Shown: piece by piece, positions 24,107 to 63,700 of the stretch
Layout: each line of letters opens with the position of its first letter
Numbering within the stretch: the first letter of the stretch is position 1
Origin: Tubulanus polymorphus
Lineage: Eukaryota > Animalia > Nemertea
Direction: 5' to 3'
Assembly (NCBI RefSeq): GCF_964204645.1
Contig: NC_134034.1
Location: 8,196,962 to 8,260,961 of the forward strand
Length of the DNA: 64,000 bases
Notes under the pieces: generated by a model
Seen by the model: only the letters and a program-made list of their open reading frames with translations
Databases searched by the model: none
What the model was told of the DNA's origin: nothing
Position numbers and translations under genes: made by a program

Positions 24107-24484
24107 CAGAGATATGGATTTTACCAAGGAATAGATCGCACTGCAAGAATTGGTCTTACTAGATAAATGGATTTTACCAAGGAATAGATCGCACTGCAAG
24201 AATTGGTCTTTCCGGAGAAATGGATTTTATCAAGAAATAGATCGCACTGCAAGAACTGGTCTTACCAGAGAAATGGATTTTACCAAGGAATAGATCGCAC
24301 TGCAAGAATTGGTCTTACCAGAGAAATGGATTTTACCAAGGAATAGATTGCACTGCAAGAATTGGTCTTTCCAGAGAAATGGATTTTACCAAGGAATAGA
24401 TCGCACTGCAAAAACTGGTCTTTCCAGAGAAATGGATCTTTACCAAGGAATAGATCGCACTGCAAGAATTGGTCTTTCCAGAGA
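24107..24484. repeat. Minisatellite, 7 x 53 bp
   Basis: Unit CAGAGAAATGGATTTTACCAAGGAATAGATCGCACTGCAAGAATTGGTCTTTC, few substitutions between units, no spacers. Confidence 0.95.
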
Positions 24485-29350: not shown

Positions 29351-29432
29351 AGAAATATATACCATGTATATACATGGTATATACCATGCATTAGACATCG
29401 TCACGCTGTTATCAAAATTTCCATCATTAAAA

Positions 29433-35000: not shown

Positions 35001-35554
35001 AAGGCATAGTTATATTTCAATCAGTTTTGGCACTTTTGTACTCAAGGATGTTATCTATCATCACGCTGCAAAAAGAACGTCAGGCAGCAAATAGATTATG
35101 TTACCCTTTGTACCAGAAGAAAATATCATCATTCAAAAATAGTGTTGTACAGGACAGTGATGAACCAAGCTCACAAAGGGCACTTATTTGCTGGAGATTT
35201 TCATTTTAAAGGTTGGAAAATAGATGTTGGGAAGAGGTGAAGGTAATATATAGCTTATATGACACTTAATAAACTGAAACAAGTGAATTTTTTTACATTA
35301 GAAATTTTGTCCTGTACAACACTGTCTTGTACAACACGATGGGTATCATCAATCAATTAGTCCTAGTTTCAATTCGCATCACAGAATTACTCTATAACTC
35401 TGGGATGTGATAGTTAACTTCCATAGGTATCTGCACAAGCCTAATTGCCTTCATATCTATCCAAACTTAACAGAAATTTTCATTCAAACTTTTCATCTGA
35501 AAATGCTTGATTTGTGTCCATCCAGTACAACACTATTTTTGGATGGCTATATTT

Positions 35555-36717
35555 TTTGACGCCTTATAAAACGTTACCATTATGAAACCTAAACAATGTT
35601 AACCATTCAGCGTCATTTTACAAACGACAGCCGTAAATCGATGTGCAAAACGTCACAGGTCTATGTGTACACAAACAAGCTATCTGGCAAAATATTATTG
35701 ACATAGATGTAGAATGGCTTCCTGTGATTATATAATGACCTATATTTGAACGTCGAAATGTTATATTGCATTGAATATCATGATAAGAGGTATTGTAATA
35801 GTAAAGGATGTATGATTATATCAGAAGCGGCAGGCATAAATAGAAATGATAAGTAAATCGGATTATTCGGTTAAATGGCGGATGTATACACGATTTGGAA
35901 GTCTGATATAAAAGTCAGACCCTGACGTGGGTATGCCGGTGGAATGACGAAGCTATCTACGATGTGTGTAGGGCCGGCGTGAATTTCATCAGCGGCTACA
36001 AGTGGTCAATATGGAAATGTGTAAACATATAATTTCAATATTCAAACGTTTTAGAAAATATGTTTGATATTAGGAGTATGCAGGTTTCGTGAGATTAGCA
36101 ATTTAAAATAGCATAGCTGTCATATACGGCTCCGCGTCCTCTGATGGCATGTATATTAGGTGACAATTTAATTCAATTCTTTATTGATCCTTATTACATT
36201 GAAATTCCGGGATAAAATTCCCAAATTCAATAAATACAAATTTTAAAATAAATTAATACAACATACATGACACACGGGTAATTCATACAGAACATAAGCA
36301 TGTTATTTTAAATGACAATGTCTACTTCAACCCACCCAGACTCAAGACTCTAGGATATCGAGTGACAGCCAAACCCGTGGCCCGGGCCCGGGGACCGGGC
36401 CGGCTGGCTAGGCCACACGATATGCTCGAAGTCATGATGAAGCAGACATCAGAAGAGCTCTTTCTTCAACCATGGAGGCAATGAAGTTGCAGACCAGCTT
36501 AGAGGCCTAAGTAAATGAAGTCGGTCGCAAGTTCGCGATCAATTATTGAGAATTTTCAATAAAAAAAATTTAAACCACTACTAGAGTCGAAGACCTGTAT
36601 CATCTACCCAATCGCCAAATCTCATCATTCCCCAAATTTCTTAAAACTTCGATTTCAAATTTGCAATTCCACATTAGCTTAGCCCAGAAATTCTACATTT
36701 TTTTCGCAGGCGTCAAA
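35555..36717 (+). mobile_element. Non-autonomous TIR element of about 1.15 kb, superfamily not assigned
   Basis: Ends TTTGACGCCT...AGGCGTCAAA; full-length inverted copy at 55793-56900. Confidence 0.75.
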
Positions 36718-39700
36718 TAATAAATTTCTAAAATTAATTTTCTTGTTTCTTGTAACTATCAGAATCTTTTTGCTGCCTGATGATGGACAACCTCCCTAAG
36801 TACCAAAGAACCAGAACACATTGAAATTGAAGGGTGCCTTGTAGTTCTTATAGATGAAAATGTAGTGTAAGTGTCCTGTACAACACAGGGAGAATTGCCC
36901 TATTCAACGCCCCCTGGTGACTACATAGAATGAGCTACAACTTTGCAATTGATTGTGGTAAAAAAATATGCATAGGTACGAATATAATATAGAAATACTA
37001 AGTTATTGTATTATTCAACGCCCCCTGGTGGCCATGTACAAAAACCAATGAAATTGAAACTCACCAAAATCATAGAACACTTTGTGGGCTACAACTTTCT
37101 AATTCATTGTTGTAACAAAATACGCTTAGGTATCAATATAATGTCGAAAAACTTTTTCCCACCTATGAATGAGTACTAATGACACCAAGATGGCCGCCAA
37201 TTGCATCATAATTGGCTGATCAAAAATAATAAATGCTGATGGGCCTGGGGGGGGGGGTTTCAAATGTATACGAAAGATCGAGGTAATTGATCAAGGCGTC
37301 TTCAAAATATCCCTCAAAAAGTTCAAAAATGTGAAAAAAGTGCTGACTTTGGCGTACAACAATGGCTGCCAGTCGGCCATCTTGATTCTGACAGGGCCAG
37401 TTTTTGGGCTGAAGATGTGTCTAGGGTAGATACATGTATAACCAACCAAATATCAAGAAATTACCTTGAAGCGTCTTTTAAACTTCCCAAACTGGATTCT
37501 GTCTACGTATGGACGGACGGACGAACAGTGAACGCAATAGCCCGCTGGAACTAAAGTCCCAAGTGGGCTAAAAAAGTGACTTATAATAATCAGAGTAATG
37601 ATTGAGCCCCATCTTATAGAAGTCCCCGGATTCATTGATAAGTGAATTGCATTTACACTAACACGGCTCTGTTATGGCACGTGCACGACGATGATTTATG
37701 GACGATACAAAGCTGGAAATTATTTTTAAGGCATGCGACCCTCCGTCGGAGATAAAAGCTTAATTTGGACTCATCATTGGTGATAGCCCAGATAAAACAA
37801 TTGAACAAGTCTTAGTTTTTGACAATTATTTAGAAATGAATATTTATTTTCTAAGCACCGCGATTGGGCTGCAAAGCCATCCATCATCATTCTAAAATTA
37901 ATCGAGGAAGCATTCAGCAAAAAATGCAAGCCATCACAGAGCTGCCTCTGTAAGCTACAACGTGGCAACGTTATTCATGGAGTGCACGACAAACCTTGAC
38001 CTCTCGCGATAAATTGAAACGATATTTAGTTGTAAATCGTTGCCCAAAACGTCAGTCGTATGACGTAACTCGTAAAACATAAAACGTAATTCGTAATGTC
38101 GTTTCAGGGCTTCCATACTCATCTGCTACGACAATTATTCAGCCTGTTATGATACCAAACATGCACGCGCCAAGCAGCGTTACAGCATCACCATATAGTA
38201 GTCTGTATGAGCGTGTGTTTGTGTGTGCAACAGTCTGATGTTCAGCGCACGTGGAGGCCTTGTGTAGTGAACATTCGCTTCACTTCAATCTCAATCAACA
38301 CAATCACTGGGTATCAAAATGAAACAACACCTATGGCATTATGTGAAATAATTATATTCTCACCAGCAATGAGCATTTAAAATTCGCACATATACGGCAC
38401 CTAGTCCAACCAGAAAGAAACTTTCCATGATGGGTTTCTGTGTAATTGTTTCTGTTTCATTCACCGAACTCGCTGTCAAAAAGGCGATTCTCGATATAAA
38501 TAGTAATGGGTTTCCCCGCGGGATACCCGCTTTGGGAAAGGCACCTGAATCGATGCTACGAGTTCGAATCCCAATATTCAGACGTAATTTATTATTCTTT
38601 GAAATAAATTCTTAGAATTTCTATTTATGATAGGATGTGCAGGTTTTGATTTGGTAATGATGTTAATAAAAGTTAACCTCTTAAGGTATTGTTTTCTATC
38701 TATTATTTGTGACGGATTAGTTTCGATGCTCCTCACAACCCGCCCCACCACGTGTCACTTATTCACGGACGCGCGGGTTGTATCATTTGTAATAGGTCTA
38801 CCACATGAAAGAGTCCATGGCCTGCCGTAGAATAGTAGGGCCTACCGATCACGCTATGTGCGATGAAAGTAGTGTTTGAAAAAAACAAATTTTTAATGAA
38901 ATAAACATTATTCATCATAATTAATCAATAGATCAGGTGCCGCCTAAATAATTGTTTGTTTCGTGAAATTTGTACAAAACTTCGTCATGTCTTGTGACCC
39001 TGAAAATACTAGAAGAATCATCGGTAAGCTTATAAAACGGCGAGGTCAACATAGTAACAACAACTTCGGGGATTGAAAAAAAAAACTCAAAAGAATTATC
39101 TTTTATACTGATGAGTTATACTGATGGGGAGTAGCGACCGTCATTGACACCGGTTATTTATCCATTCACTATCAAATGTGACGAGCCCAATAAATGATTG
39201 GGCATAGATTCGGCCTCTCAGCATTTAGCACAGCAGTTCCGAGAAGTGTTAAGACCGATCAGCGCGCGCGCTATCTAAAACCGGTGCTAGTACGATCAAT
39301 ATCTACAGGTATATACGTGTTCAGTATTACACAGCGAGTACCAGTATGTTGATCGAGCGTCGTCGTAGCAACGCGCTATACAGCGGCTTGAACTAGCGAG
39401 TAACGTTAATTATCTTTTAACCAAATTAGAGCACTTATAACCATCGGAATCAAATATAAACCAAGCTGCACCATCTACATCAAGTAGAGAATACCTGTGT
39501 GAAATTACAGAATCGTCGGTCCACACAAACAGCTTAAATCGTGTCATAAAGAAACATCCACAGACGGACAGACAGACAGACATGATGACGATGCCATAGA
39601 TGGGTTCGTCTGACGACGAAACCCATCAATAAAACATTTGCCAATAATGGCTTTCCCATAATTATTTTAGTAGCGCCGGAATTCCCTGTATATCCCAAAA

Positions 39701-39908
39701 ACAGCCAATCACAATCGCTCGTAGAGACGACGCCCCCCAATCGAGGTTATTGCAATTTTATACACAAGAGTTAAGAATTTTCTCGCCAAAAACAGTTTTT
39801 CCTCGAATTTAAAACAAAGCTGACCATGTCATCGACGGAGGTTCGTCATGTCTTCAATCGCATCGATTATAAGTTGTTTAACCCGAGAACCAATGAAAAA
39901 AAACACAT

Positions 39909-41164
39909 AAACTAGGGGTCCAGGGATACCATGCCCACTTGGGAAGTGGTTCCAAATGCTCAACAATCTAACAATTTCAATATTCAACGCCCCCTGGTGA
40001 CCATATACAGAATCCAATGACCTTGAAACTCACCACAATCATAGAACATGTCAGCAGCTACGATTTTGTAATTGATTGTGATAACAAAATATGCCTTGTT
40101 ACCACTTTAATATGGAAATACCAAGTTATTCTACTATTCAACGCCCCCTGGTGACCATATTCAAAACCCAATGACCTTGAAACTCACCACAATCATAGAA
40201 AATGTCACGAACTATAACTTTGTAATTGATCATGGTAACAAAATATGCCTAGGTACCAATATAATAAGGAAATACTAAGTTATTCTACTATTCAACGCCC
40301 CCTGATGACCATATAGAATAACTAATGACCTTGAAACTCACCACAATCATAGAAAATGTCACGAACTATAACTTTGTAATTGATTGTGGTTACAAAATAT
40401 GCATTGATACGAATATAATATAGAAATACTAAGTTTTGCATTATTCAACGCCCCCTGGTGGCCATATACAAAAACCAATGACCTTGAAACTCACCACAAT
40501 CATAGAACACGTTATGAGCTACAACTTTCTAAATGATTGTGGTAACAAAATACGCTTAGGTATCAATATAATGTGGAAAATACTTTTTCCCACTTACGAA
40601 TGAGTACTGCTGACACCAAGATGGCCGCCAATTGCGTCATAATTGGCTGATGAAAAATACCTGTCTCAGGTATAAAACATCCCTTTCCAAAGAATACCCA
40701 TCACAAATTGCAATGAGAAATGATAAACCAGTAGGAAGCTACAGGACTCAGAATTTGAGCCAAAATTAACATTTTTGGGCACTAAAAAGGTCATAGGACG
40801 GCCATCTTGAGTCCGATCGACCCAATTTTTGTTATGCTGATGGGCCCTGGGGGAATTCACATATATCCGAAAGATCAAGGTAATTGATCAAAGCGTCTTC
40901 AAAATTTCCCTCAAAAAGTTCAAAAATGTGTAAAAAGTGCTGATTTTGGCGAACAACAATGGCTGCCAGTCGGCCATCTTGAATCTGACAGGGCCAGTTT
41001 TTTGGCTGAAGATGTGTCTAGGGTAGATACATGTGTAACCCAAATATCAAGACATTACCTTGAAGCGTCTTCAAAACTTCCCAAAATAACTGGATTCTGT
41101 CTACGGACGGACGAAAAGTGAACGCAATAACCCGCTGGGACTAAAGTCCCAAGTGGGCTAAAAA
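39909..41164 (+). mobile_element. Helentron/HINE-like non-autonomous element, family A (complete copy with about 4 internal 154-bp tandem units)
   Basis: Starts AAACTAGGGGTCCAGGGA; unit starts at 39981, 40135, 40289, 40442; conserved core; (GGAC)n microsatellite; 3' hairpin CCCGCTGGGACT-AA-AGTCCCAAGTGGG then TAAAAA; no TSD, A-rich flanks. A partial duplicate of the 3' part follows at 41227-41468. Confidence 0.75.
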
Positions 41165-41514
41165 CGTACCGCGATTTTACATGAATTGGCTCAATGCCAA
41201 CCTCATACTGCTGACAAAGGTAAAACAAAAATGTATAAAAAGTGCTGATTTTGGTGAACAACAATGGCTGCCAGTCGGCCATCTTGATTCTGACAGGGCC
41301 AGTTTTTCGGCTGAAGATGTGCCTAGTTTAGATACATGTGTAACCCAAATATCAAGACATTACATTGAAGCGTCTTCAAAACTTCCCAAAATAACTGGAT
41401 TCCGTCTACGGACGGGCGAACGGACGAAAAGAGAATGCAATAGCCTGCTGGGACGAGTGGGGTAAAAATGCAATGGGCTTAAATGGAGGAAACATTTTGC
41501 AATTGTCCTCTTAC

Positions 41515-43620: not shown

Positions 43621-45284
43621 GCTAGAGGAACGATAAAAATTTTGACATTGGCCCGTCTTTTGGTTTTCCCGAGCGAGAAGTCAAAACTTTTGGTTTTCTC
43701 GCGCGAGAAAAACAAAAGATTTGAATTCTCTTGAATTTTTTTATCATACCTCTAGTACTCTGGAAAATGTCAAGTTTTCAATTACGGGGAAGTAAACTAA
43801 AGAAATGAAAACAAAAATACCTTGGAATGACTACAGAGGCAAAGGTGTGAAAAGGTGTGATTAAAATGATGGTAGAAATTAAAAAAACTAACCTTTTTGC
43901 ACATAATGAGATTGAAACATAACGTTTGCATTTTAGATTGAAAATCAAGACGGCATTACAAACATAAAATTCGATGAAAACACGGAGGACTAAGAAAGAT
44001 TTAAAAAAGTTTTTTTGATAGTTTTTTGGTGATTTTTGCAGAATGCTGGGCGGATCCGTACTCTATATTAATAAATGTAAAGCTATCTTGCCTAGTTTTG
44101 CCCATCAGCGCCAAAACTCGAAATGGCAAAAGACGCTCTGCAGCCATAGAATGAAAGCTAGGCAAGATATCTCTACATTTTAAATTTCACTTGAAAGGAG
44201 GCGTACAGTTCCTGAAATGTTTGGAATTTTCCGAGAATTATTTCTTAAAATAACAAACTTAAGGTCCCTGAACTTCTACGTGTGCGGCAAAAACTGGCCA
44301 CATGTTTTTATATCGCTTTCATGTCGCATTGTTGCAAATTTGAGAAATGAATTGTACATAACTGAAAACAAGAGATTCACACGGTTTAAATGATGCTAAA
44401 ATTCTAAAATGCTAAAATGATGCTAAAATTGTCAAAATCCAACTATGGATCAATGAAATATGATATAACACTCACCGCAAATTGCTTTTAAAGAAGAGAA
44501 AAAGAATGACTCCAACATAGGACAACAATCGATTTTGTTGGCTGAAGTTGAAATGTTTGCTTCTGAAAGTTCAAAGTATGATTGGTCATGTTTTAATAGC
44601 GTTCCACAGGCTTGCGTAAAAATTGTATAGTAGCCCTCGTACACAATTTATAATAATAGTGACAGTGACCACGTTGGGGCTGGTCTAGTAGCATGACTGA
44701 GCAATTCACAGTAGTACTGTACTCAAACTGTGTATTGCTATATAAAGAGGTATACAGACATTAAGCTGACGCATGCGATGCACTTGGATATTTAATTCTA
44801 GTCTGAGGTAGGCCTTAAGATATGAAATATATTTAACTGTTCTTTTTGCGTTTTAAAAATTGAATGAGAAAGAGAGTTGAGGAGGGTCAGTAACAGTTAT
44901 CTTTGTTTACTACAGACAAAGATAACTTTTATAAGATAGAGAAGAGGGAACTTTACATTCAATACCTCCATAACTAAAAGGTACGTAGGACCTATAGGTA
45001 CGTACTATCTCAAAATATATACATCAAGAAAAATTAATACAGTCCGTGGTAATACCAACAAAGTGTCTCCAGGTATTCGTTTAATCACTGATAAAGACTA
45101 TATAGATTACTACTGAGATAATAAATCCCGGGAATAAATCCGTCTATTTTTAACTCAATAGGCGTTGGTACAGCCAAATACATGTAGATACTGTTTTGGT
45201 AGCTTTGATTGTAGGATGTGCTCTTTTATAAAATGTCCTACAATTTTCAGATTTTATGGTATCCATTCTACGAAGGCTGACACG

Positions 45285-46802
45285 ATGAGACGTTTCTTTC
45301 TTCGATTTTCTAACTATTGGGGATTAACTTTCGTTATCGCAATCGTTTTTTTCGTAGCATGTAATATTTCGTGGAAGCACAAACCTTTAAAATCAATATC
45401 CCCTCCTAAGGATGTATTACTAGAAAGAGATGGAAATTTGGCACATACCCAGCGTACGATGGACGTTCGAAATATCTTAAAATTGGAATTAGATAAAATG
45501 TTCAAATCAAGCCAGCCGAATTCAAAGCCCATTAGTTTTGACAGGCATGCTAAACTTCAGTTTCCCCATGAAAGTAAATCTCGGATACTAGCATCTAAAT
45601 CGGCTTTTCCAAAAATCCGTGGCGGTAACCGTGTGGCAAAGCAACTCCGCAGTCATCCGAAATCAACAGAATACAAAACTCGTGCTAGTAACTGGAGTCG
45701 TAATGTCACCGAAAGTGCAAAATCAAGTGCAAAATCTACGAATTTTGCACAAAAAAAAAATTCATATTTGAAATTTCAACCTAGAAAATCTGAAAAAATC
45801 CAAGCATTGGACATACGTAAGTTAACCGACGGGAATAGAAACCGAAAATACGCAAAAAAAGCTGTTGTAGCTGAAGCCGGGCATGTTGACGTCTCCGTAA
45901 AGAAGACAGGTGACGGTGTTCGGCGCGATTCGTGTAATGCATGCAATTCAAATTCGTTTCAATATATCATTAATGAAAATGACATGTGTATAAAAAGTAA
46001 CGGTAATGTAGATCTATTACTGATGGTGCTAAGTACCGCCAAGAATCGACCTCAAAGAGAAATTATTCGAGAAACGTGGGCGAGCATAAGTAAAGGTAAC
46101 AAAGCTACTGTACGCCATGTGTTTCTGTTTGGAACGGTTGCTCCTGTCTATACAGCCGTCTTGGATTTTGAGCGGAGAAAATACCACGACATCATACAAG
46201 CCGATTTCGTCGATAGTTATTATAATTTGACCAGGAAATCACTTATGGCGTTTCATTGGGCGAGTACATATTGTGAAAACGCGAAGTATATTCTTAAAAT
46301 AGACGATGACATGTGGGTGAATACACCGAGAATGTTGGACATGATCAGAAGAGGGGAAATGGGGAAATTCATAAATGATAGAAACTACGGAGGTTCTTGC
46401 TACTCTGGGAGTTTACCGATCCGAAATCCTAATTCAAAGTATTATGCGTCACGACAGGCATGGCCACACGATCAATATCCAGCATTCTGTGATGGTCAAA
46501 CCGGGTACATCTTAACGCCTAAAGTCGCTGCGGATTTGTACCACATGTCGAAAAACGTTCCATTTTTTCACCTGGAAGACGTATACATTGGACTGTGTAT
46601 GAAAGCATTGGGTAATGAAATCAAACCTATTAACGGTTTCTTTAAGGGATTAAGTGGAACAGTGAACGATATGTGTTTCTACAAGAAAGAGGTTTTTACT
46701 GTACATAAGGTATCAGTAGAACGATTGAGAACAATCTGGAACACGAGATGTTATGCATCAGACATTTCTTCGCAAACTATTCAAGGTGTTTTCAGCAGTT
46801 AG
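45285..46802 (+). CDS. Beta-1,3-galactosyltransferase-like protein (GT31, Galactosyl_T), type II membrane protein, about 505 aa, single coding exon
   Basis: ATG at 45285 follows a ttttcag acceptor ending at 45250. N-terminal TM segment (WGLTFVIAIVFFVAC) and GT31 motifs R-x-x-IRETW, QADFVDSYYNLTRK, YILKIDDD (DxD), LEDVYIGLC. Confidence 0.93.
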   Translation: MRRFFLRFSNYWGLTFVIAIVFFVACNISWKHKPLKSISPPKDVLLERDGNLAHTQRTMDVRNILKLELDKMFKSSQPNSKPISFDRHAKLQFPHESKSRILASKSAFPKIRGGNRVAKQLRSHPKSTEYKTRASNWSRNVTESAKSSAKSTNFAQKKNSYLKFQPRKSEKIQALDIRKLTDGNRNRKYAKKAVVAEAGHVDVSVKKTGDGVRRDSCNACNSNSFQYIINENDMCIKSNGNVDLLLMVLSTAKNRPQREIIRETWASISKGNKATVRHVFLFGTVAPVYTAVLDFERRKYHDIIQADFVDSYYNLTRKSLMAFHWASTYCENAKYILKIDDDMWVNTPRMLDMIRRGEMGKFINDRNYGGSCYSGSLPIRNPNSKYYASRQAWPHDQYPAFCDGQTGYILTPKVAADLYHMSKNVPFFHLEDVYIGLCMKALGNEIKPINGFFKGLSGTVNDMCFYKKEVFTVHKVSVERLRTIWNTRCYASDISSQTIQGVFSS

Positions 46803-46870
46803 CAGCAAAAATCCCCTTCAAAGTGTCCCCCACGTGGTACGATAACCACACTCAAACGTGGTGAATAGAG

Positions 46871-47221
46871 GATAAGATAAAAACCCACTATTTACAATTA
46901 AAAGAAATCTAAAATCGAGAATTTATTTATTGAAACAATCTAAAATATAAGAGCACGACGTTTCGATCTCACACTAGAGATCACCGTCAGGTGTGAGATA
47001 TTGACTAAAAACAGGGGTATATATACAGAGGAAATATATATTTATAGAGAATATATAGAGAATATATATATAGAGAAATATATATTCAATATCTCACACC
47101 TGACGATGATCTCTAGGGTGAGATCGAAACGTCGTGCCCTTATATTTTAGATTGTTTCAATATATAAATTCTCGGATTTTAGATTTCTTTTTATTTGTAA
47201 ATAGTGGGTTTTAATCTTATC
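46871..47221. mobile_element. Inverted pair of Penelope-type pLTR remnants just after the galactosyltransferase stop codon
   Basis: Arms 46871-47004 and 47086-47221 are reverse-complementary around an AT/GA-rich spacer; each arm carries a hammerhead motif. Confidence 0.75.
47096..47137 (+). ncRNA. Minimal type I hammerhead ribozyme
   Basis: cac-CTGACGA-t-gatctc-tagggt-gagatc-GAAA-cgtc-gtg: intact core, 6-bp stem II, GUC cleavage triplet. The minus-strand twin at about 46954-46993 has CTGACGG (core substitution). Confidence 0.78.
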
Positions 47222-49932
47222 CCCCACCTTTTGAATGGGGTGCAAGTAAATACAATCTCATTGTACAAGTTGAATTGAAAATACCACAAATTAACAGTTC
47301 TTTTATACTATCACAGCTCAAATATATCACGGGACGTGAACAAGTTAAAACAGTTCGTTGCAAAGTTCAAATTAAAACTGCACTAGCGTGAATTTGAGAT
47401 ATTTCAAATTAAAAGTTCATTATTTCTAATAATTCATGGTATCGCACAGTGAACAATAACAAAAGTTAAAAAGAGTTCATAGTACATAAATATTCCAGAT
47501 AAAATCTAATACATTTCATTAATTCTATTAATTCTACAAATTCTACAATTCTGAGTATTTTTCTACGAATTCTATCTAAGAATAAAGAAATGGGATATTC
47601 ATGTATTGCAGTTTTATTGAAAATGAATAGAATTAGAGATTCTCGCTTTGAAATGTTCTCAAAAAATTACCAAGGAGATTACCTAGGGGATTTTTACCTA
47701 AATTCGTTTTCAGCAAATATAGATAATAAATCTTACACTATGCACTCATTCAGTAATCGGTTAACGCGTTATTTCTTTTTGGACTACTTTTTTCTTTTTC
47801 TGAAAAGTTCTTGTTCTTACGATATTAATTAACGTTTACGGTTTAAGTAAGCCGCAACACGTATATCGCCGTACCGCGAGCCCGTGACACAGCGGCGAAT
47901 CGGTATCACCGATATTTGCATTGTGTGCCAAGCGACGCGATGCGAATTTTCAAGCCGGCGATTTCACTCTAATCAATCAACAAGCTTCAGTGGAACCTCG
48001 TTATTACGAGATGGCCTATTACGTAACTCGCGTATAATGTATGGGCCAAATTTAGAACAAATTCTAGTAAAAATCAGTTTAATATGAACACGATGATACG
48101 AAAAATTCGTTAAAACGTTAATTTCCTTATAGTAATTCAATGCGGTTAAAACGATGGCTGATCGCCTCTATCAGACTCAATACGGGTATAGCAATAACAA
48201 TTTTAACATACTTTTTTGTATGTGAATGTTCTTCGATTGAAAGGAATGAGAGACATTTGTCCTGAAAACGACGGAACTGTATTCTCGAGGTGCTTCTGTC
48301 CAGAAGGAACGAAATGAACTACAACATTGACTTGCTCACAGCACGGAATTTAGTGAATCTGGATCCACGAGGATCGGCGTAGGGTTCGATTCCCCCGCAA
48401 AATCGGAGAGGCTCACACCAGTTTCATTTGTGAAACAGAAAGAAATAGAAATTTACATAGAAAAATAAAACAGTTACAGAGTTAAAAATTGTACACATGT
48501 ATTTTTGAAACAAGACGATTTATTTCAGCAAAATAGTTTCAGTGATTCACCTTTTATTGCTCGGGTTAGTTTTACTACCAACGGGTGGCGCGGTATGTAA
48601 ATTTCACATAAATCACCAACTTTCGGCAATTAGCGGTACTTGAGACCACTTGAAAACATCATAGTCAGTAATTCAGTTATGGTAGTATGAAAATAAAAAG
48701 TTGATATAAATATATATGATATGATATGATATCTTTTTTAATGTTCAGTATAAACGTTGAATGTATATGTTCGTCACGTTTTGCATGTTAGTACCAATAC
48801 GTGCACGCGTCCATTCGAATGAAATGTGCACGTTACAGACTCAAATAAAAACGTTTACCGCGTTCATAGCCCCACGTTAAAATCTTTTGCGTTTAGAGGG
48901 AAATTTCAAAGTTAGCTCGCTACCTACAATAAAAATCGGACAAGACTTTTATAAGCGCCAAATTTGAATGTATGAGTAGTACTAACGAAGGATTCAGGAA
49001 ATACCCCTTGTCATTTCTAAAAACATTTAACCGGTAATTAGACAGTATTGGTGTAGCTTGCACAGGTAAGTGTTACTGTTGTTATATTGAGGTTCAGGGC
49101 AAATATTTTATTACATTATAATTAGGCCTATTTGATACCGAACACGACTGTGTTGTTTCTGAAACAGATAAATATAGCTATGTGGTCAGTACTGGTCAAG
49201 AATTGGTCAGTTGAATAGTTGTAATATCAAAGCTAGCACCATATCTAATTATTTGAAACCAAACACGACTTTGTTACTTCTAAAATTGGGCAAATAACTT
49301 TAAGGTCAGTATTGGTCAAGAATTGGTCACTTAATTAGTTGCTAAATCATAGCCTGCGCCATAGTCGCTCGACACCCAAACACTATTTTATTGCGTACTA
49401 ATGCTTATAGATTACTTCAGTAAATAAAGTAATTTGTCTATTTTAGAAGTAACACAGTCGTGTTTGGTGTCAACTTGAATGTTTAGTTATCAAAAATAAA
49501 GAATTGTTTTGTAATTGTGGCGCTGACACGCGGCTGCAGCCGCGATGCTAGGCTATATAGGTCAATGATCCAGCTATTTAATTTTATTGATTTAAGACAA
49601 ACAAGTGATTTTTTTCTATAAGGCTGATCCCACAGGTCGTCATTTACTAAAGTATCATTTGGAAAGTAAATCTCAAAAAGTAGGAATTAGAGGGTATTTT
49701 GACCTTTACGCCTAATTTAGTCCTAATTCGGTTCAATCTAAGTCTCGGATTGTTGTCCCTTACATTCCTTGTTTACATAAATTGAAATCGAATCTTAAAG
49801 CCCTAAAACACCGAAATCATTTTCAAATATGATAATGGAATTTCTATTCACTAAAAGCAATCTTATGTCTTACTTAGTATAGATGCTGGTGTTTATAAAA
49901 TCTGTTGTCTGGATTGTGATAAAATTCAGGTC

Positions 49933-50336
49933 AGTAATAGGGATAATAGGCTTTCAAGCCAAAGGTCGAACGGTCGAGCTCATTAAAAAACAAAACATTA
50001 AAAGTAATTTAAAACTATAATATATTTTCATAACCGTGTGCATTTTATATTATAACTAAATATTTATTCTAAGATATCAATAATTTAAAAAGCATATTGT
50101 ATTAAATCAATTGGTCGCTCCACTTCGCTACCGCTCCGCTCCGCGACCAATTGATTTATTTACAATACACAAATTCATATAATCAAATATATTTTAATAA
50201 TAATAATTATTCTATTATTCAACTGAAATACACACGGTTATGAAAATATATTATAGTTTTAAATTACTTTTAATATTTGTTTTTAATGAACTCGACCATT
50301 CAACCTTTAACCTGAAAGCCCATTACCCCTATTACT
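49933..50336. repeat. 404-bp terminal palindrome: arms 49933-50040 and 50231-50336 around a central stem-loop at 50095-50167
   Basis: Arms are reverse-complementary with 9 substitutions and 2 single-base indels; inner stem TAAATCAATTGGTCGC / GCGACCAATTGATTTA with a GC-rich loop. Confidence 0.9.
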
Positions 50337-50542
50337 CTTAAAATAATCATATACATGAATAACATTTAAATTGACAGATTATTCAATATAAAAGTATATA
50401 TTTACAACATTATTTCAATATTCATATTTGTGTGAGTTAGATTTTTAAACATTAAAAGTGTTAGTAAAGTGTGATTGAAATAATACATGATATAAATCAT
50501 TGAACTTCTAAAATCAATTTTAATAAAAAATTTAGTATTAAA

Positions 50543-50719
50543 ATGGAAGCAAATAAGTACTACTGTCCAACATGTAATATCAATATAGATAAATCCCAAA
50601 AAGCAAGACACAATAAAACTAAAACACATTTAGAGAATAAATTGAAACTAGAATATAAAGATGATATATTAGAAACTAAATTAGATGAATTAAACAATGA
50701 AAAAGAAACATACCAATAA
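50543..50719 (+). CDS. 58-aa ORF with one C2H2-type zinc finger (MEANKYYCPTCNINIDKSQKARHNKTKTHLENK...)
   Basis: Translated by hand (below the 60-aa ORF-track cutoff); C-x2-C...H-x5-H pattern. The C-terminus may be truncated by the rearrangement starting at 50712. Confidence 0.55.
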   Translation: MEANKYYCPTCNINIDKSQKARHNKTKTHLENKLKLEYKDDILETKLDELNNEKETYQ

Positions 50720-50808
50720 GGGTAAAAAAATATTTTTAAGCGTAAGGTTTCAGCGAACTCTAACTCTTTTTGAATTTTAACCTATTTTAATAAAAAGTTG
50801 ATATATAA

Positions 50809-51875
50809 ATGTGCTCAAGATTAATTAAAGTTCCCGCGAAAGACATGAGTAATAAATATATAAATTCAATATTATATTATTTAACTGTTAACAATAATTT
50901 AGCAGATATTTCAGGAGTAAATATAAATAAGTATTATAAATCTGAAAATAATGAATTAATTGAAACATCAGATATATTTTACGATAATATAATGCTATAT
51001 AAAATCATGTTAGAAAAAGAAATTATTAAAGAAAATAGAACAACTTTTCTAAACGTTAATCAGAGAAAGATAACGCATTATGAAATTAAAGAATGTTTTA
51101 ATCAAGGAGATATTTTATTGGATAATTTAGCTATAAAAATTACACGTGTTTTAACAATTCATGATGATAATTCAAAATCATATATATTAAGTAGAATTAA
51201 TCAAGAATTGAAATTAACAGATTATATTGCTGTATTTAAAATTTCATTATGCAATCAAAATTTAAATGAATAAATACAGAAAATGGATAATATTGAAAAA
51301 TTATTAAATGAAAAAAATTACAATACATTAGATGTAGATGTGACACAAGATTTTAAAGGATCATTTAATTCAGATGAAATAAAATCAATGTTCGAAAATA
51401 GAAAATATAAAGTTCTAAAAGAATTTTCCAATAGTTGTGTTCCAGCATTACATAAGGATGATAAAATAAAGATCTATAATAAAACAGCATGTCAATTCAA
51501 ATCTCCTGGCGTAAATATAAATTTCGGTTCAAATTTAATGAGTTACATAAATTGCTATCAAGAAAGGTTCAAAGAATCATTTGAAAAATCAATTGAAACA
51601 GGATTAATTAGAATTGAAATAACAAGTATTTCATTTAAAAGAGGATTAAAAGAGATGGGAAAAATAAAACAATACTTAAAAAAAGAAATATTTACTATTC
51701 ACCTACATATTTACAACTTAAATCATTATTTGATGAGGTTCAACAGACTGTATGTATTTATGATGAGGTTCAACAGACTGTATGTATTTATGATTTGATT
51801 GAAAAATGCTTTTATTTCTGTTATTATGGTGATTTATGAGCAAGGAAATTTATAGGATATAAATCTAGGATAAGT
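50809..51875 (+). pseudogene. Disrupted ORF of a putative Rep_trans-like rolling-circle initiator, left copy
   Basis: ORFs 50809-51273 and 51283-51798 are in the same frame, split by a TAA that reads TTA in the inverted copy. Motifs DVDVTQDF, KIKIYNK, GLIRIEIT. A frameshift near 51690 and a 30-bp tandem duplication at 51731-51790. Confidence 0.6.
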
Positions 51876-52993
51876 CTTTTTGATTTCTATTCGCTTCAAT
51901 AATGAATTCTGATTTATCATCATTTTGATCAATTGTTAGGTATAAACATGGGATATTCTTAATTGTAAACATTGATAAAACAAGTAAAAAGGAGGACTCT
52001 TCAATATTTTTACTTATCCTAGATTTATATCCTATAAATTTCCTTGCTAATAAATCACCATAATAACAGAAATAAAAGCATTTTTCAATCAAATCATAAA
52101 TACATACAGTCTGTTGAACCTCATCAAATAATGATTTAAGTTGTAAATATGTAGGTGAATAGTAAATATTTTCTTTTTTTAAGTATTTTTAAGTATTTTT
52201 CCCATCACTTTTAATCCTCTTTTAAATGAAATACTTGTTATTTCAATTCTAATTAATCCTGTTTCAATTGATTTTTCAAATGATTCTTTGAACCTCTCTT
52301 GATAGCAATTTATGTAACTCATTAAATTTGAACCGAAATTTATATTTACGCCAGGAGATTTGAATTGACATGCTGTTTTATTATAGATCTTTATTTTATC
52401 ATCCTTATGTTATGCTGAAACACAACTATTGGAAAATTCTTTTAGAACTTTATATTTTCTATTTTCGAACATTGATTTTATTTCATCTGAATTAAATGAT
52501 CCTTTAAAATCTTGTGTCACATCTATATTAATTCATTTAAATTTTGATTGCATAATGAAATTTTAAATACAGCAATATAATCTGTTAATTTTAATTCTTG
52601 ATTAATTCTACTTAATATATATGATTTTGAATTATCATCATGAATTGTTAAAACACGTGTAATTTTTATAGCTAAGTTATCCAATAAAATATCTCCTTGA
52701 TTAAAACATTCTTTAATTTCATAATGCGTTATCTTTCTCTGATTTACGTTTAGAAAAGTTGTTCTATTTTCTTTGATAATTTTTTTCTCTAACATGATTT
52801 TATATAGCATTATATTATCGCAAAATATATCTGATGTTTCAATTAATTCATTATTTTCAGATTTATAATACTTATTTATATTTACTCCTGAAATATCTGC
52901 TAAATTATTGTTAACAGTTAAATAATATAATATTGAATTTATATATTTATTACTCATGTCTTTCGCGGGAACTTTAATTAATCTTGAGCACAT
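51876..52993 (-). pseudogene. Inverted second copy of the same ORF (deletion of about 60 bp near 52525), extending into the 136-bp spacer
   Basis: The 52523-52993 protein is nearly identical to that of 50809-51273; ORF 51865-52092 continues the C-terminal part (IEKCFYFCYYGDLLARKFIG...). Confidence 0.65.
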
Positions 52994-54086
52994 TTATATA
53001 TCAACTTTTTATTAAAATAGGTTAAAATTCAAAAAGAGTTAGAGTTCGCTGAAACCTTACGCTTTAAAATATGTTTTTACCCTTATTGGTTTTTTAATGA
53101 GCTCGACCGTTCGACCTTTGGCTTGAAAGCCTATTATCCCTATTACTCAGGTCGCTCCCTCAGTAGTCGTATATAAGAACGGAGGAAAGGCAATAGGGAT
53201 CGAACATGTTATTAATCATAAGAATATGAAATATTATTAATCATTAGAATAGGAAACATATTATTAATAAAAAACCCCAATGTGCTGGCTACCCATGTTT
53301 AGTATACTAATGGTCGCGGATTTAATTTTGAAAGTTCTCAATAGTTTTCCCGTCTAATAGCATTACCCGACGCCACATAGTTGAGTCGGCCTTAATAAAT
53401 TAACATTCCAAATCCTGCATCAATTGTAACCTTGGTTGCTCTCCCATAATATACTTATGTCCAAGTTCATTTTCTCTCTCGCCAATATCACCTAATTGGT
53501 GTGCAATAGTGGTTATCGTTCCCTAACTCGGATATGTTGTATTTCGAGCCATTTCTTGACAATGGTTTTTAGTTGAAAACCGAAAGTTCGTATTCTCTAT
53601 AAATTTTAACGTTTCGATATTTTTATTTTTCCGACTTCTTGATTGTGGAACTGACATTATACTCCGCTTTCACGATTTATTGCGGAGTTTGACCTCGTCG
53701 CAAACGTATGATACTCCATTTCCATTACTATAATGTATTCGTGAATTGAAAACATATAGCGTTTTATCATCGGGGAAAAAGGTTTTAATGGATATTTTGA
53801 TTGAAAACTATGCATACTTAGTCTACTTTTCATCTACGTCAAGTCGTGTCATCCTATGATAGTTCTGTGATGACATCATGTATAATCCATTCTCCTAACA
53901 GTAAACAACGTAGTGACTTCGACTCTTCGGTGTTGAGATAATTGCTCTTAGATATACCGTATATGTTTGTGATATCAGGCCTTCTAAACGATACCAGTAC
54001 ACTGATTGTTTACAGAATCAACGTAGAATAAATCTATCACGTATAATAGTGTTAATTTGTGCGAACGATTCCTGGATATATTGCAA

Positions 54087-55121
54087 ATGGCATCGACAAA
54101 GATTCCTCAGTCTACTATCAGTCCCCTTTATGACGGGCATTTCTGTCCAAGAAACTCGTTCAATGCCGGAATCTACCTTTTCAATGTGTTTGGGGTTGGG
54201 TGTATGTGCGTTATAGGATTTACTTGCAACGTCCTAACTGTTTTCACAATCAATCGTTTTCAAAACCGCAGTGTTTCCATATACCTCATCCAGGTACTAT
54301 CTGTTATTGATGTCAGTTATCTTATAGCATGTTTTATATACTTCACATTACGTTTTGGGGTATATTACCTAATGAAAGGGGAAATGGCCTTACGACTTGA
54401 AGGCCGCAACATCTATCCGGGTTTCTATTACATCGCATTAGACATATATTTTGCCACGCTGCAAGTTCGCAATCAGTTTGTGGCAGTTGTTTCCACTGAC
54501 CGTTTTATCAATGTGTTCTTCCCGTTCTTAGCTCGGCGTCATCTCAATCGAAGGAAATATAATATTCTCATCGTTTGCATCATAATTTTTGCTATCATTT
54601 GTCGCTATTCACGATATATCCCACTGACAAAGTTTACTCTTGATCGTGTCAATATTTGTGACCATTCTCTTGAACTTTCTGTTCGACGTGCCCCTATTTT
54701 CCCACCGAAAGGACCATTTGATACTTACATTGTAGCTAAAAACTACGAAATCCTTGTAGCTTACGGTCCATTAGGCACTATTCTATTATCAAATTTTCTT
54801 ATCTTGTTAAAAATACGTTCAGCGACGAAAAAACGTGCGGCAATTGCCAAAAAAGGCGAGAAACACGATAACACTGCGACGCAAATGGTTTTTATTATTG
54901 TTGCCATTTTTCTAATCTGCGAAGGTGCTCCAACTATAGATCGAATTATCACAAATTTTGGAGTAAGTGCCACCAATTCACCGTTTATTCTCGGACTACG
55001 TAAAGTGTCACTTTATTTTACAATTCTAGACTCAATTCTCAATTTTTTCGTTTATGTTGCAGTGAATAATCTATTCAGAAATACATTACTTCTCATGATG
55101 AGAAAAAAATATCGAGGTTGA
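54087..55121 (+). CDS. Rhodopsin-class 7TM GPCR, FMRFamide/peptide-receptor-like expanded family, about 344 aa, single coding exon
   Basis: Seven hydrophobic segments, GFTCNVL in TM1, LSVID in TM2, STDRF (DRY-like) after TM3, FLICEGAP in TM6, LNFFVY...FR in TM7/H8; upstream acceptor tttacag near 54015. Confidence 0.88.
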   Translation: MASTKIPQSTISPLYDGHFCPRNSFNAGIYLFNVFGVGCMCVIGFTCNVLTVFTINRFQNRSVSIYLIQVLSVIDVSYLIACFIYFTLRFGVYYLMKGEMALRLEGRNIYPGFYYIALDIYFATLQVRNQFVAVVSTDRFINVFFPFLARRHLNRRKYNILIVCIIIFAIICRYSRYIPLTKFTLDRVNICDHSLELSVRRAPIFPPKGPFDTYIVAKNYEILVAYGPLGTILLSNFLILLKIRSATKKRAAIAKKGEKHDNTATQMVFIIVAIFLICEGAPTIDRIITNFGVSATNSPFILGLRKVSLYFTILDSILNFFVYVAVNNLFRNTLLLMMRKKYRG

Positions 55122-55792: not shown

Positions 55793-56900
55793 TTTGATGC
55801 CTGCGAAAAAATGTAGAATTTCTGGTATAAGCTAATGTGGAATTGCAAATTTAAAATCGAAGTTTTAAGAAATTTCGGGAATTATGAGATTTGGCGATTG
55901 GGTAGATGATACAGTCTTCGACTGGTCTAATTAAAAAAAAAAAATGGTCAACTTGTGACTTCGATTCACTTTTGCCTCTAAGCTGGTCTGCAACTTCATT
56001 GCCTCCATGGTTGAAGAAAGAGCTCTTCTGATGTCTGCTTCATCATGACTTTGAGCATATCGTGTAGCCAGCCAGCCCGGTCCTGGGGCCCGGTCTGGCT
56101 GTCACTTGATATCCTAGACTTGAGTCTGGGTTGAAGTAGACATTGTCATTTAAATAACTTTTTCATGTTATTTTGTATGAATTACCCGTGTGTCTTGTAT
56201 TTTCTTATTCTAAAATTTGTAAATGTATTGATTTTTGGAATTTTATCCCGGAACTTCAATGTAATAAGGATCAATAAAGTATTGAATTGAATTGTCACCT
56301 TATACACATGTCATCAGTGGACGCGGAGCCGTATATGACAGCTATGCTATTATAAATTGCTAATCTCATGAAACCTGCATACGTCTAATATCGAACATAT
56401 TTTCTAAAACATTTGAATATTGAAATTATTTTACACGTTTTTATATAGACCGCTTGTAGCCGCCGATGAAATTCACGCCAGCCCAACTCAGATCGTAGAT
56501 AGCTTCGTCATTCCACTAGCATTCCCATGTCAGGGTCTGACTTATATATCAGACTTCCAAATCGTGTATACATCCGCCATTTAACCGAATAATCCGATTT
56601 ACTTATCATTTCTATCTATCCCTGCCGCTCCTGATATAATCATACATCCTTTACTATTACAATACGTCTTCTCATGATATTCGATGCGATATAACATTTC
56701 GACGTTCAAATAGAGGTCATTATATAATCCCAGGGAGCCATTCTACATCTTTATCAATAATATTTTGCCAAATAGCTTGTATGTGTACACATAAACCTGT
56801 GACGTTTTGCACATCGATTTACGGTTGTCGTTTGTAAAATGACGCTGAATGGTTATCATTGTTTAGGTTTCATAATGGTAACGTTTTATAAGGCGTCAAA
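55793..56900 (-). mobile_element. Inverted second copy of the 1.15-kb TIR element
   Basis: Reverse complement aligns end to end with 35555-36717. Confidence 0.75.
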
Positions 56901-57623
56901 AAAGTTTTTTTTATGTGTCACTGTGATACTGTGTGATACTGGTGTGAGCCAGATGTGTTCCAGTTAACACTTTAAACAAACTACCGCTTGCTAGTTGCTA
57001 GTGGGATGTGGCCTGCACTGCAAATCTCAAGTACCAACCGGTGGGTTTTTGGACCTCCATTTGAGTCGGCCGATTTTTTACCGTATGTGTGCGATATCCA
57101 CAAATCATGGTTACAAATGTCCTTATTCCACAGATTCTTCAATGTTGTCCTCTTTTGCGCATAATGAATACAGAAAACCGCGAATGAAATTCTATAGAAC
57201 GACACCGAAATAACGATCGATATTTTCTAAATCCAGACAAGAAAACAAAATTTAATATAATGGAGTCGATTTTGGCCAGTCTCAACTTTTAATGAAACTG
57301 ACTTTTATCAGAACGACAGATTGAATGATAGCTTCGAAAAGTAGATTAAGGAAAACTTCCGACTCAACAAACGTTCATATTTAATAGATAAACTGAAACG
57401 AGCAGAAACAGCTTACGATTCGTGGACCCAGTACAATACGGCTCAAATTTGCTGTTTTTCATTAATAATACGGGCAATAATAAAACCAATCAGAAGCCGC
57501 AATTAGTTCTTCACATTTTAGGGGTAGAAATCGATTGACTGTGGTTTAAAATTTTTCCACGACAGGATGTTTTGTTATAGTAAAGGCCTATAAGCTTAAA
57601 ACCAAAGATTACTTGACTATAAC

Positions 57624-58261: not shown

Positions 58262-58834
58262 TTTTATGTCTTCGCTTGACCTTTTTGACAAATCTAGTGT
58301 AGGTCTAGGTCTAGGTCTGTAGATTGCACGCAGTAAAAAACATGATCAGCTCCGGAGCCCTACCTATAACTGAATACATGTGGATATTATACACAGTGGA
58401 CTTAAGGTGATATTGTACCAATTTGACCACTGTGCCGCACCAAAAAAAAGAAAACCCTGTTTCTCGAGCCCGACCAATCCAATATCATCTTGGAAATAAC
58501 ATAGAATTGCCTATCAACCCTATATAAAAATTGGTTTGGACTTGACATTACACTGAAAATGAAAACTTTCGCGGCTTCGCCTCTGTGTGTTCAGTGTGCA
58601 TTAACGATGCACACAGGACAGCGAGTGAGGTGTGGAATTAGCGCGGGTCTCTCAATAAACGATCGGACAATAAGATCGGACGGTCTCAGATTGCACCAGA
58701 ATGCGCCTGCTTGCACAAAATTTAAAAAAATGTTATTCCTTAAAACAAACTCCCCATAAAAAATCCTGGGGAAGCCCATGTTTATTCACAACATCCATAT
58801 ATATCTCCACTTTCTTGCTGTGGCGTAAAGAATA

Positions 58835-60411
58835 AAACTAGGGGTCCAGGGACACCATGCACACTTGGAAGTGGTTTCAAATGCTCAACAACCTAACAAT
58901 TTCATTATTCAACGCCCCCATCCAATGACCTTAAAAAAATTCAAAATGAACTTGGAAATGACCACACAACATGTCAGCATCTATGATTTCGAAATTGATT
59001 GTGGTAACCAAATATGCCTAGAAACCACTATAATATGGAAACACTAAGTAATTCTACTATACAACGCCCCCTGATGACTATATGCAATGCCCAATGACTT
59101 TGAAACTAACCATAATCATAGAACAAGTCATGAGCTACAACTTTTCAATCGATCATGGTAACAAAATGTGCCTAGGTGCCAATATAATAAGGAAATATTA
59201 TGTTATTGTATTGTTCCATGCCCCCTGGTGGCCATATACCAAAACCAATGACCTTGAATCTCACCACAATTATAGAACATGTCATGAGCTACAACTTTCA
59301 AATTGATCGTGGTAACAAAATATGCATAGGTACGAATATGATATGGAAATACTAGGTTATTGAATTGTTCAACGCCCCTTGGTGGCCATATACAAAATCA
59401 ATGATCTTGAAAACTCACCACAATCATAGAACATGTCATGAGCTACAACTTTCCAATTGGTTGTGGTAACAAAATATGCATAGGTACAAATATAATATAG
59501 AAATACTAAGTTCTACTTTTCAATGAGCCCCGGTGACTACCGGTATATAGAATAACTTATGACCTCGAAAATCACCACAATCATTGAATATGTCATGAGC
59601 TACAACTTTTCAAATTGATTGTAGTAACAAAATATGCATACGGTAGGTACAAATATAATATAGAAATACTAAGTTATTGCATTGTTCAGTGCCCCTTGGT
59701 GGCCATACACAAAAACTAATGACCTTGAACCTCACCACAATCATAGAACACATTATGAGCTACAACTTTCCAATTGATTGAGGCGACAAAATATGCTTAG
59801 GTATCAATATAATGTGGAAAATACTTTTTTCCACCAACGAATGAGTACTGACGACACCAAAATGGCTGCCAATTGCGTCATTATTGGCTGATCAAAAAAT
59901 ACCTGTTTCAGGTATAAAAGATCCCTTTTCAAAGAATACCCATCACAAATTGCAATGAAAAATGGCAAACCATTCGGAAGTTGCAGGACTCAGAATTCAG
60001 GCCAAAATTGACATTTTTGGGCACAAAAAAGGTCAAAGGACGACCATCTTGAGTCCGATCGACCCAATTTTTTCTCATGCTTATGGGCCCTCGGGGGATA
60101 CAAATATATCTGAAAGATCAAGGTAATTAATAAAAGTGTCTTCAAAATTTCCCTCGAAAACTTCAAAAATGTGTAAAAAGTGCCGAATTTGGCGAACAAC
60201 AATGGATGCCGATCGGCCATCTTAAATCTGACAGGGCCAGTTTTTGGGTTGAACATGTGTCTAGGGTAGATGCATGTACAAGCTAAATATCAAGACATTA
60301 CCCAGAAGCATCTTCAAAACTTCCCAAAATAACTGGATTCCGTCTACGGACGGACGGACGAAAAGTGAATGCAATAGCCCGCTGGGACTAAAGTCCCAAG
60401 CGGGCTAAAAA
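58835..60411 (+). mobile_element. HINE-like family A, complete copy with about 6 tandem units
   Basis: Same structure; longer, more diverged array. Confidence 0.75.
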
Positions 60412-61863: not shown

Positions 61864-63700
61864 GGGAGCGTCCAGAAATTACGTACCTCAAAATCTCCCA
61901 TTTTTTCTGAAACCCCCTCCCCCTTGTACCACCTTTGTACCAAATTCACTGACCCCCTCATAGGTACGTACCATGGTACCCATGACCACCCCCCCCAATT
62001 ATATCGATGCAAAGAACACAAATCAAAACTAAATATAAACTAGGGGTCCAAGGACACCATGCCCACTTGGGAAGTGGTTTCAAATGCTCAACAATCTAAC
62101 AATTTCAATACATAACACATCCTGGTGACCATAGACTCAGAATTCTGGCCAAAATTGACATTTTTAGACACTAAAAAAGGTCATAGGATGGCCATTTTGA
62201 GTCCGATCGACCCAATTTTTGTTTTGCTGCTGGGCCCTTGGTAGATTCAAATATATACATAAGATCAAGGTAATTGATCAAATCATCTTCAAAATTTCCT
62301 TCAAAAACTTAAACAAGAGCCCCAAGGGGCACTATGGCCAGCCTGTCAGCTTTTCATAATGGCAAATGATGATGCATTTTGTGGGTTAAATTTGTCAAAA
62401 TACATTCCCAGCCTGCCCTCAGAGTCAATATCTAATAATTTACACAATTCAATCGTAGAATACAAAAGTAGCACACGACAGCGACTGGATCTGGCAGGAA
62501 CAAATACCTCAAATCTTTTCCCTTGGTCTTATTGATTTTAATGCGGAATAATATTTAATTTGCTCAATAAAACAAAATTGAATTGGATTTGATTTTTTAT
62601 TTGTTCAATAAAGTAAAATTGAATTGGATTTTATATTTTTTATTGCGGAATAAAATTTGATTGAATTTGTAGTTTCAGCACATGGCTAACTAGCATATCA
62701 AGGTCATCTATCCGATTTAAGAAAAAGCTATTTTTCCCGGAAAATGGTCAATTTGATATTTTCCGTAGTGCTAATAAAAATATTCTTCCCAAAAACCAAA
62801 TCAACTAAAGCTTTCACAGAAATCGATCTTGAAATACAATTTTAGATCTTAAAAAAAACCCGGAAGTAAAACGGTAGACAATACCGCGGGTTTACGTGAA
62901 CACCTGCTGATTTCTGCGGCTATGCCAATCATAGAGGAGTCTTTCCTTTCTGATTGGCTTTTCAAAACCAATACTTTTTGCGATCAGATATTCAAGAAAA
63001 AAGCTCATATAAATTTTAACGAGGCCCTCTTTCAAAATTCAGCTACGTAGAGTTTGGAGAATGGATAATGCTTTAATGAATGATTTGTATGAATATATGC
63101 TCAGTGGCAATGTAAAAGAGCCCTTACTCTGGAAACCATATCATTTAAATTCGCTCCATTTGTATAGTAATAGGCTCAGCCTACGGCCATCTTGATTCTG
63201 ACAGGGCCAATTTTTGGGCTGAAGATGTGTCTAGGGTAGATACATGTATAAACCAAATATCAAGACATTACATTGAAGCGTCTTCAAAACTTCCCAAAAT
63301 AACTGGATTCCGACTACGGACGGACGAACGGACGGACAACAGACGAAAAGTGAACGCAATAGCCTGCTCGGACTCAAGTCCCAAGTGGGCTAAAAATATA
63401 AATACCTGATTCCAACAAGTGCATGAAAGATCGATACAGTTACCTGGTATGGGGAATTCCCAGTTGAAGTCTACTACAAGTCACTTGAACAAGTCACTAA
63501 AAGCCGATAAAACACCAGTATCGGCTATTTTCATTTGAGTTTGGGTGCATAAAGTATGTCCCAAGATTGATTAATACCCCACTCCCTGAAAGTATGTACC
63601 TTTTTTGCTGACCCCCTCCCCATGTACCACTTGTACCACCATGTACCAAAATTCAGTAACCCCTCCCCCAATTCGAGGTACGTAATTTTTGGACGCTCCC
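61864..63700. mobile_element. Harbinger-like MITE hosting nested family A and B elements
   Basis: TIR GGGAGCGTCCA.AAATTACGTACCTC...GAGGTACGTAATTTTTGGACGCTCCC; TAT on both sides. Confidence 0.7.
62037..63396 (+). mobile_element. HINE-like family A copy interrupted by a family B element (62311-63187)
   Basis: The 5' part 62037-62310 and the 3' part 63185-63396 match family A. Confidence 0.7.

Follow-up and report, generated by a model that had tools for sequence, protein, structure and literature searches.

The window analyzed here (the whole 64-kb stretch of DNA) contains a mobile element of 3215 bp at 49933-53147, delimited by its two termini and by a perfect 6-bp duplication of the target site at 49927-49932 on the left and 53148-53153 on the right. 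We estimate that such a duplication would arise by chance about 4-5 times in 10,000. The terminal inverted repeats, at 49933-49991 on the plus strand (starting AGT) and at 53089-53147 on the minus strand, are exactly identical over 59 bp. The element is an island of low GC content (23%), and its surroundings are animal DNA, where a galactosyltransferase ORF (45162-46802) lies on one side and a rhodopsin-type receptor ORF (54027-55121) on the other.

Other repeats are scattered through the window. A palindromic element of approximately 350 bp (46870-47222; 115-bp arms at 87% and a TA-rich centre) lies directly behind the galactosyltransferase ORF, and the region 49129-49473, which is multi-copy in reads (depth ~200), has direct repeats at 120-bp spacing together with inverted repeats of 34-42 bp. 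A dispersed repeat family (28466-30632, 36850-37574, 39897-41454, 58822-60411 and 62025-63396) has tandem units of 154 bp in its interior and a 3' block that is conserved; it is a non-autonomous element. A repeat of about 1.1 kb occurs in two copies of opposite orientation (35552-36703 and 55806-56903; 86-95% identical by segment), and units of 53 bp form a tandem array at 24054-24477.

The ends of the element are AGTAAT...ATTACT, where five of the six letters agree with (AGT)2 and the second terminal triplet deviates. A 6-bp target-site duplication together with (AGT)2 ends is the Maverick signature according to the excerpted text of PMC8097293, and the ends and duplication seen here read as the Maverick/Polinton integration signature. 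Terminal inverted repeats, AG...CT ends, the 6-bp duplication, AT-rich intronless ORFs and an animal host are all features in common with these elements. The gene content is different: neither the element nor the rest of the window has a protein-primed PolB, rve integrase, ATPase, protease or capsid gene, none of the four window ORFs of at least 170 codons is a Maverick core gene, and the Rep-like gene described below is absent from the conserved Maverick genes given in the same excerpt. Because the PolB, rve integrase and capsid module are missing, the element is not an autonomous member of the Mavericks/Polintons, nor did the sequences examined show an autonomous parent. It is likely a non-autonomous element with ends of that type, probably inserted by the integrase of a helper, and it is from the 6-bp duplication that we infer the integration step. 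The sequence-only reading that preceded this analysis had credited the structure with two integrable ends, and the terminal repeats and the duplication bear this out.

The left terminal repeat opens an imperfect palindrome of 404 bp (49933-50336; 75-77% identity), which folds computationally as a single long hairpin (z = -18; 0 of 100 shuffles). Its interior has a GC-rich central stem-loop at approximately 50100-50166, the terminal repeat recurs inside it as a copy at 86% (50280-50336), and no Rfam family matched within it; we regard the palindrome as a candidate origin or nick site. Further in, an ORF of 58 codons on the plus strand (50543-50719) encodes one C2H2/U1-like zinc finger (Pfam zf-U1, E 7e-4, under the curated cut-off), and no longer homologue was found among 40 candidates.

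Raw DNA reads from another sample of the species (run X6, of which ~12% was read) cover these parts very unequally. The depth is 800-2840 over 49937-50664, with ~1650 in the zinc-finger ORF, compared with 30-71 in the arm up to 51665, 13-26 in the spacer and 6.5 in the least covered bin of the flanks. From this contrast, the left module is present in several hundred copies and the gene in roughly ten in that other animal, the zinc-finger module being 30-50 times more abundant than the gene. Loose ends before 49933/49932 are carried by 1673 + 356 reads and show no agreement among themselves, so this terminus is inserted at many sites. Another 588 reads depart from the reference at 49989, all with a common alternative continuation, which means that many family ends match this one for only ~57 bp. 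At 50717, 441 reads depart with a single continuation (agreement 0.98); the joint at 50712-50717, which the stop codon of the zinc-finger ORF spans, is thus the point where the high-copy hairpin/zinc-finger family departs from the window sequence. At least one X1 contig among those listed links the left module to the start of the arm; its shorter side covers 29 letters, and it hints that the link may exist in copies other than the present one. In addition, 335 reads, whose flanks are unrelated, stop at 50336. Either the 404-bp hairpin may also be mobile by itself, as a miniature element, or variant termini may have been mapped to the inner repeat copy. A small share of a marine metagenome (run X5) gave scattered short pieces only and was not used.

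The rest of the element is a mirror. The left arm (50712-51875, plus strand) carries a TATA-like box at 50802 and the 5' part of a gene that starts at 50809. The right arm (52012-53090, minus strand) carries a second copy of this part, with the gene running from 52993, and 136 bp of spacer (51876-52011) lie between the two. The inverted duplication and its spacer had been recognized in the sequence-only reading, and our alignment agrees. It gives 17 substitutions in 1076 aligned bp (1.6%), a 30-bp tandem duplication found in the left arm only (51731-51760/51761-51790), a segment of 58 bp (51277-51334) that is missing in the right arm, and three more small indel bases, which matches the substitutions, the 30-bp duplication and the deletion of about 60 bp described before. 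The right arm then abuts the right terminal repeat directly, with a 2-nt overlap, also as described.

In the left copy of the gene the motifs FxDN, DxDxTxD, KxYNK and GxxRxE lie at 50977, 51331, 51469 and 51601, and a stop (51271-51273) and, near 51685, a frameshift disrupt the reading frame. The right copy is disrupted by the 58-bp gap, which puts it out of frame and removes part of the first aspartate motif, as well as by small indels. A natural homologue, P0006, matches by tblastn on the minus strand through the spacer to 51886, 10 bp short of the fold point. The spacer therefore continues the ORF of the right copy, as claimed earlier, to about residue 374 of ~716, and both copies end at about half length. 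Since both are broken, neither is expected to make enzyme, and the mirrored copy is a dead derivative. The TATA-like box of each arm points inwards, so that double-stranded RNA from the arms is conceivable.

By its sequence, the arm gene corresponds to the 5' half of a protein of ~716 aa from an unnamed family. With an X at its stop, the left copy matches three metagenome proteins at ~50% identity, and P0006 (716 aa) is a cluster mate of these matches. A profile search at E<=0.001 collects 253 representatives, i.e., clusters at 50% identity, and 73 of 105 aligned members are at least 600 aa long. Organism names appear on 5 of the 23 rows of one family listing: Planococcus citri (three rows), Cacopsylla melanoneura and Cinara cedri, all hemipteran insects. 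Three family genes (P0012, P0014, P0182) lie on one 84-Mb sequence of P. citri with neighbouring LOC numbers, one of them with named isoforms, and this cluster is possibly expressed or domesticated. No Pfam family passes at E<=0.01 in any of the 54 members tested, tblastn against 50,697 phage records gives no match, no PHROGs family is matched by more than one of 74 members, and a sequence search of the PDB returns nothing with E under 0.03. Scans that all rest on two short patterns confirmed none of 287 and none of 600 candidate stretches in IMG/VR, 0 of 419 candidates in a first metagenome scan and 5 of 254 in a second, and 1 of 172 in prokaryote genomes. This last hit is a 3.6-kb contig (L006) filed under a Terracidiphilus MAG and identical to the contig L004, each with a single family ORF of 1049 codons and TTTTGGG repeats near the end; it is probably mis-binned eukaryotic DNA.

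The conserved columns of the family, over 105 aligned rows, include D46 (93/95), D163 (102/103), D167 (103/103), Y209 (104/105), K211 (105/105), R254 (102/103) and E256 (99/102), and the motif order D..DxDxTxD..KxYNK..RxE is that of Rep_trans. In the excerpted texts of PMC4797284 and PMC13107129, the corresponding residues of RepDE are D46, D142, D146, Y191, R212 and E214 on a TBP-like fold, with which the conserved residues of the family agree in kind and in order, compared by sequence order alone. An ordered three-motif pattern, composed after both families had been seen, is found in 89 of the 105 rows. The window's copy, pT181 RepC and VGJ Rep contain it too; among 2100 shuffles it turned up 4 times. 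The likeness to Rep_trans (PF02486; pT181 RepC/RepD, inovirus RstA) and to the archaeal Rep-Arvir (DUF7845) thus consists of a TBP-like fold, predicted here, and of an acidic triad, a tyrosine motif and an RxE in like order, with KIYNK in the family where RepC and VGJ Rep read RIYNK. There are also differences: the hosts are eukaryotic, the proteins have 700-950 aa and a predicted OB-fold tail, the tyrosine and the RxE are 47 residues apart compared with 23 in Rep_trans, and there is no Pfam match or significant profile match. Specifically, in the profile comparison 5 of 500 shuffles scored as high as RepC and 35 of 500 as high as VGJ Rep, the hhalign probability was <1% and the motifs were left unaligned, so the comparison is not significant.

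Structure prediction points the same way, at modest scores. In the AlphaFold model of P0006 (pLDDT 79.8), residues 38-283 match TBP with Z 9.3-9.4 and rmsd 4.0-4.3 over ~150 aligned residues, where a Z of ~9 is slightly above the usual background. Foldseek pairs the same model weakly with RepDE (4cwc; prob 0.89, E 4.7e-3). Among viral models, the P0006 model matches LEF-3 (E 1e-4) and, at E 0.012, an inovirus Rep; the C-terminus of the family resembles LEF-3, the single-strand-binding protein of baculoviruses. Atlas leads to Phage_CRI and Rep_trans (both 0.79) are weak. The matches of a second model, P0004, which is without the first ~70 residues, cover half-domains. Foldseek ranks RepDE 10th and 21st for it (E 0.09 and 0.12), and the 50 rows listed by a wide search do not include RepDE. 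For neither model did the PDB structure search give a match at E<=0.001. A conserved His-x-His pair, as in HUH enzymes, is absent among the conserved columns, and the fold differs too. From motifs and models, we think it quite probable that the gene product is a rolling-circle DNA-nicking initiator, a predicted eukaryotic relative of the pT181 type. The sequence-only reading had derived the element from strand-displacement replication, which fits less well with a gene that resembles a rolling-circle initiator and not a protein-primed strand-displacement module.

An intact protein of this kind (~700-950 aa in relatives) would be a fusion in which OB-fold single-strand-binding domains are attached to a tyrosine nickase with a TBP fold, from the Rep_trans superfamily. 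The enzyme would nick a hairpin near the element end, and a host polymerase would then copy the element. Replitrons and Helitrons are similar in that they too are mobile in eukaryotes, use an enzyme of rolling-circle type, have hairpins close to their ends and come with plentiful non-autonomous partners. They differ in that their enzymes are of the HUH kind, their terminal repeats are direct or missing, and a target duplication is mostly lacking (for Replitrons, the excerpted text of PMC10288648).

Alternatively, the Rep-like gene could be no more than a passenger, or else a selfish module in its own right that had moved into the ends of ordinary Mavericks, with an enzyme uninvolved in building or moving the element. 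The 6-bp duplication and the AGT ends do indicate a retrovirus-like integrase and not a nickase, and nickase transposons are mostly without target duplications in the same excerpt of PMC10288648. Mobile replication modules that invade terminal repeats have been proposed for polinton-like viruses (PMC11296320, in excerpt), and the excess of zinc-finger modules over genes also fits a passenger. However, the gene starts 154 bp from a terminus and next to a strong hairpin, and its relatives are found as a single long ORF on a short contig, though short contigs are usual in those collections. A passenger gene is moreover compatible with the explanation that we prefer, and we consider an uninvolved enzyme rather improbable.

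How did the mirror arise? On balance we favour two once-functional sister copies of the gene, joined head to head at internal breaks. Two gene-bearing ends, one arranged repeat-gene and the other repeat-hairpin-zinc finger-gene, would have been united, either because a parent with the gene close to each of its ends suffered an internal deletion or because two sister copies recombined while replicating together, and the joined product would have retained two intact ends and then integrated. In the collinear part of the arms, 6 of 11 differences in sense codons are synonymous compared with 3.0 expected with transition bias included, a marginal excess (P=0.046) in a count that omits the stop-codon site. 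One of five distinct relative loci, the contig L003 of a distant family member, has the same head-to-head layout of 3'-truncated genes, with residues 4-368 forward followed by residues 4-211 inverted (45-696 and 1178-1804; arms ~91% identical). Its arms show 54 differences in 594 bp, of which 29 are synonymous where 13.4 are expected, so the arms of L003 had been two genes under selection. Upstream of its minus copy, at 1951-2055, this contig also has a palindrome rich in AT.

A rival explanation, the one proposed in the sequence-only reading, is a snap-back on a single molecule. After folding back over 136 nt, a replicating strand would have copied the arm; it would next have jumped to the terminal repeat or else changed template to a high-copy zinc-finger element, within the overlap of 6 nt at 50712-50717. 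Decay of the two arms would have followed. Snap-back/copy-back defective viral genomes and fold-back inversions share with the element the order arm-spacer-arm, a spacer that continues one strand, here the ORF of one copy only, and a truncated gene. The low divergence of the arms and the damage to both copies are also as a fold-back would have it. At four sites both arms carry a letter that X6 reads rarely keep (50797, 5/67; 51115, 2/37; 51510, 0/41; 51659, 2/23), which makes the arms close sisters, and a fold-back explains this equally well. At 51126, 51210 and 51272 a few X6 reads are without the majority letter. What speaks against a snap-back is that it predicts neutral decay, whereas the differences lean synonymous, both here and in L003, as with two selected copies; that the arms differ at a site polymorphic across the family (51564, where the X6 reads are split, 26 of 43); and that the outer ends of the element are unlike each other, the unlike upstream modules demanding a second event. 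At the supposed skip over the hairpin and the zinc-finger ORF, the joint is as the sequence-only reading described it, but 59 bp is about the normal repeat length of the family and both borders of the skip are module borders, for which we obtain a post hoc chance of ~2 in 10,000. This favours a native right end (repeat-gene) and a left end that may be recombinant; the X1 contig that links the left module to the arm start speaks against it. A snap-back is possible and not the best fit, and we think it unlikely as the actual origin. What stands of the earlier claim is that the element is defective, integrated and virus-like, that both of its ends are integrable and that its gene is truncated; the snap-back itself is weakened.

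An assembly artefact, in the form of a fold-back read chimera or mis-joined haplotypes, would account for junction support from reads that is confined to the left side of the element and for left-arm letters that are missing from X6 (0/100 at 50737, 0/47 at 50981). X6 comes from another sample, however, and may simply be without this insertion. The perfect 6-bp duplication argues against an artefact, as do the 58- and 30-bp indels specific to one arm, the substitutions between the arms and the matching layout of L003, an unrelated contig. One X1 contig also bridges the left border, extending out of the flank into the terminal repeat by 26 letters, fewer than the tool's bar of 31, and X1 is possibly the source of the assembly. 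We therefore regard an artefact as very unlikely. The reading as a whole, a non-autonomous element with Maverick-type ends whose mirror came from two joined, once-functional copies of a predicted initiator gene, falls just short of an even call in our judgement.

What deserves attention is the gene family together with its connection to ends of Maverick type, a connection which suggests a satellite of endogenous polintoviruses; the value of the mirrored copy is that ends, target duplication and gene are visible together. In the excerpted text of PMC13107129 (2026), Rep_trans enzymes appear restricted to bacteria, with an archaeal branch added, and there and in the excerpt of PMC13595969 the fold is described in bacterial and archaeal elements only. 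No eukaryotic Rep_trans-like element emerged from a search of mainly open-access literature, and the family may be catalogued elsewhere. Sequence motifs and models predict, in an element of an animal genome, a type of initiator for which reports have until now come from bacteria and archaea alone. We tentatively propose, with more doubt than conviction, that such elements may form an undescribed class of small eukaryotic elements, which would combine a TBP-fold (Rep_trans-like) nickase and single-strand-binding domains with borrowed Maverick-type ends and integrase, would recurrently yield head-to-head gene pairs as a defective product, and would place the superfamily in the third domain of life. 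If this is true, the at least 253 clusters at 50% identity in animal genomes would be a eukaryotic branch of Rep_trans, and its enzymes would join those of Helitrons and Replitrons as a third rolling-circle type in eukaryotic mobile DNA.
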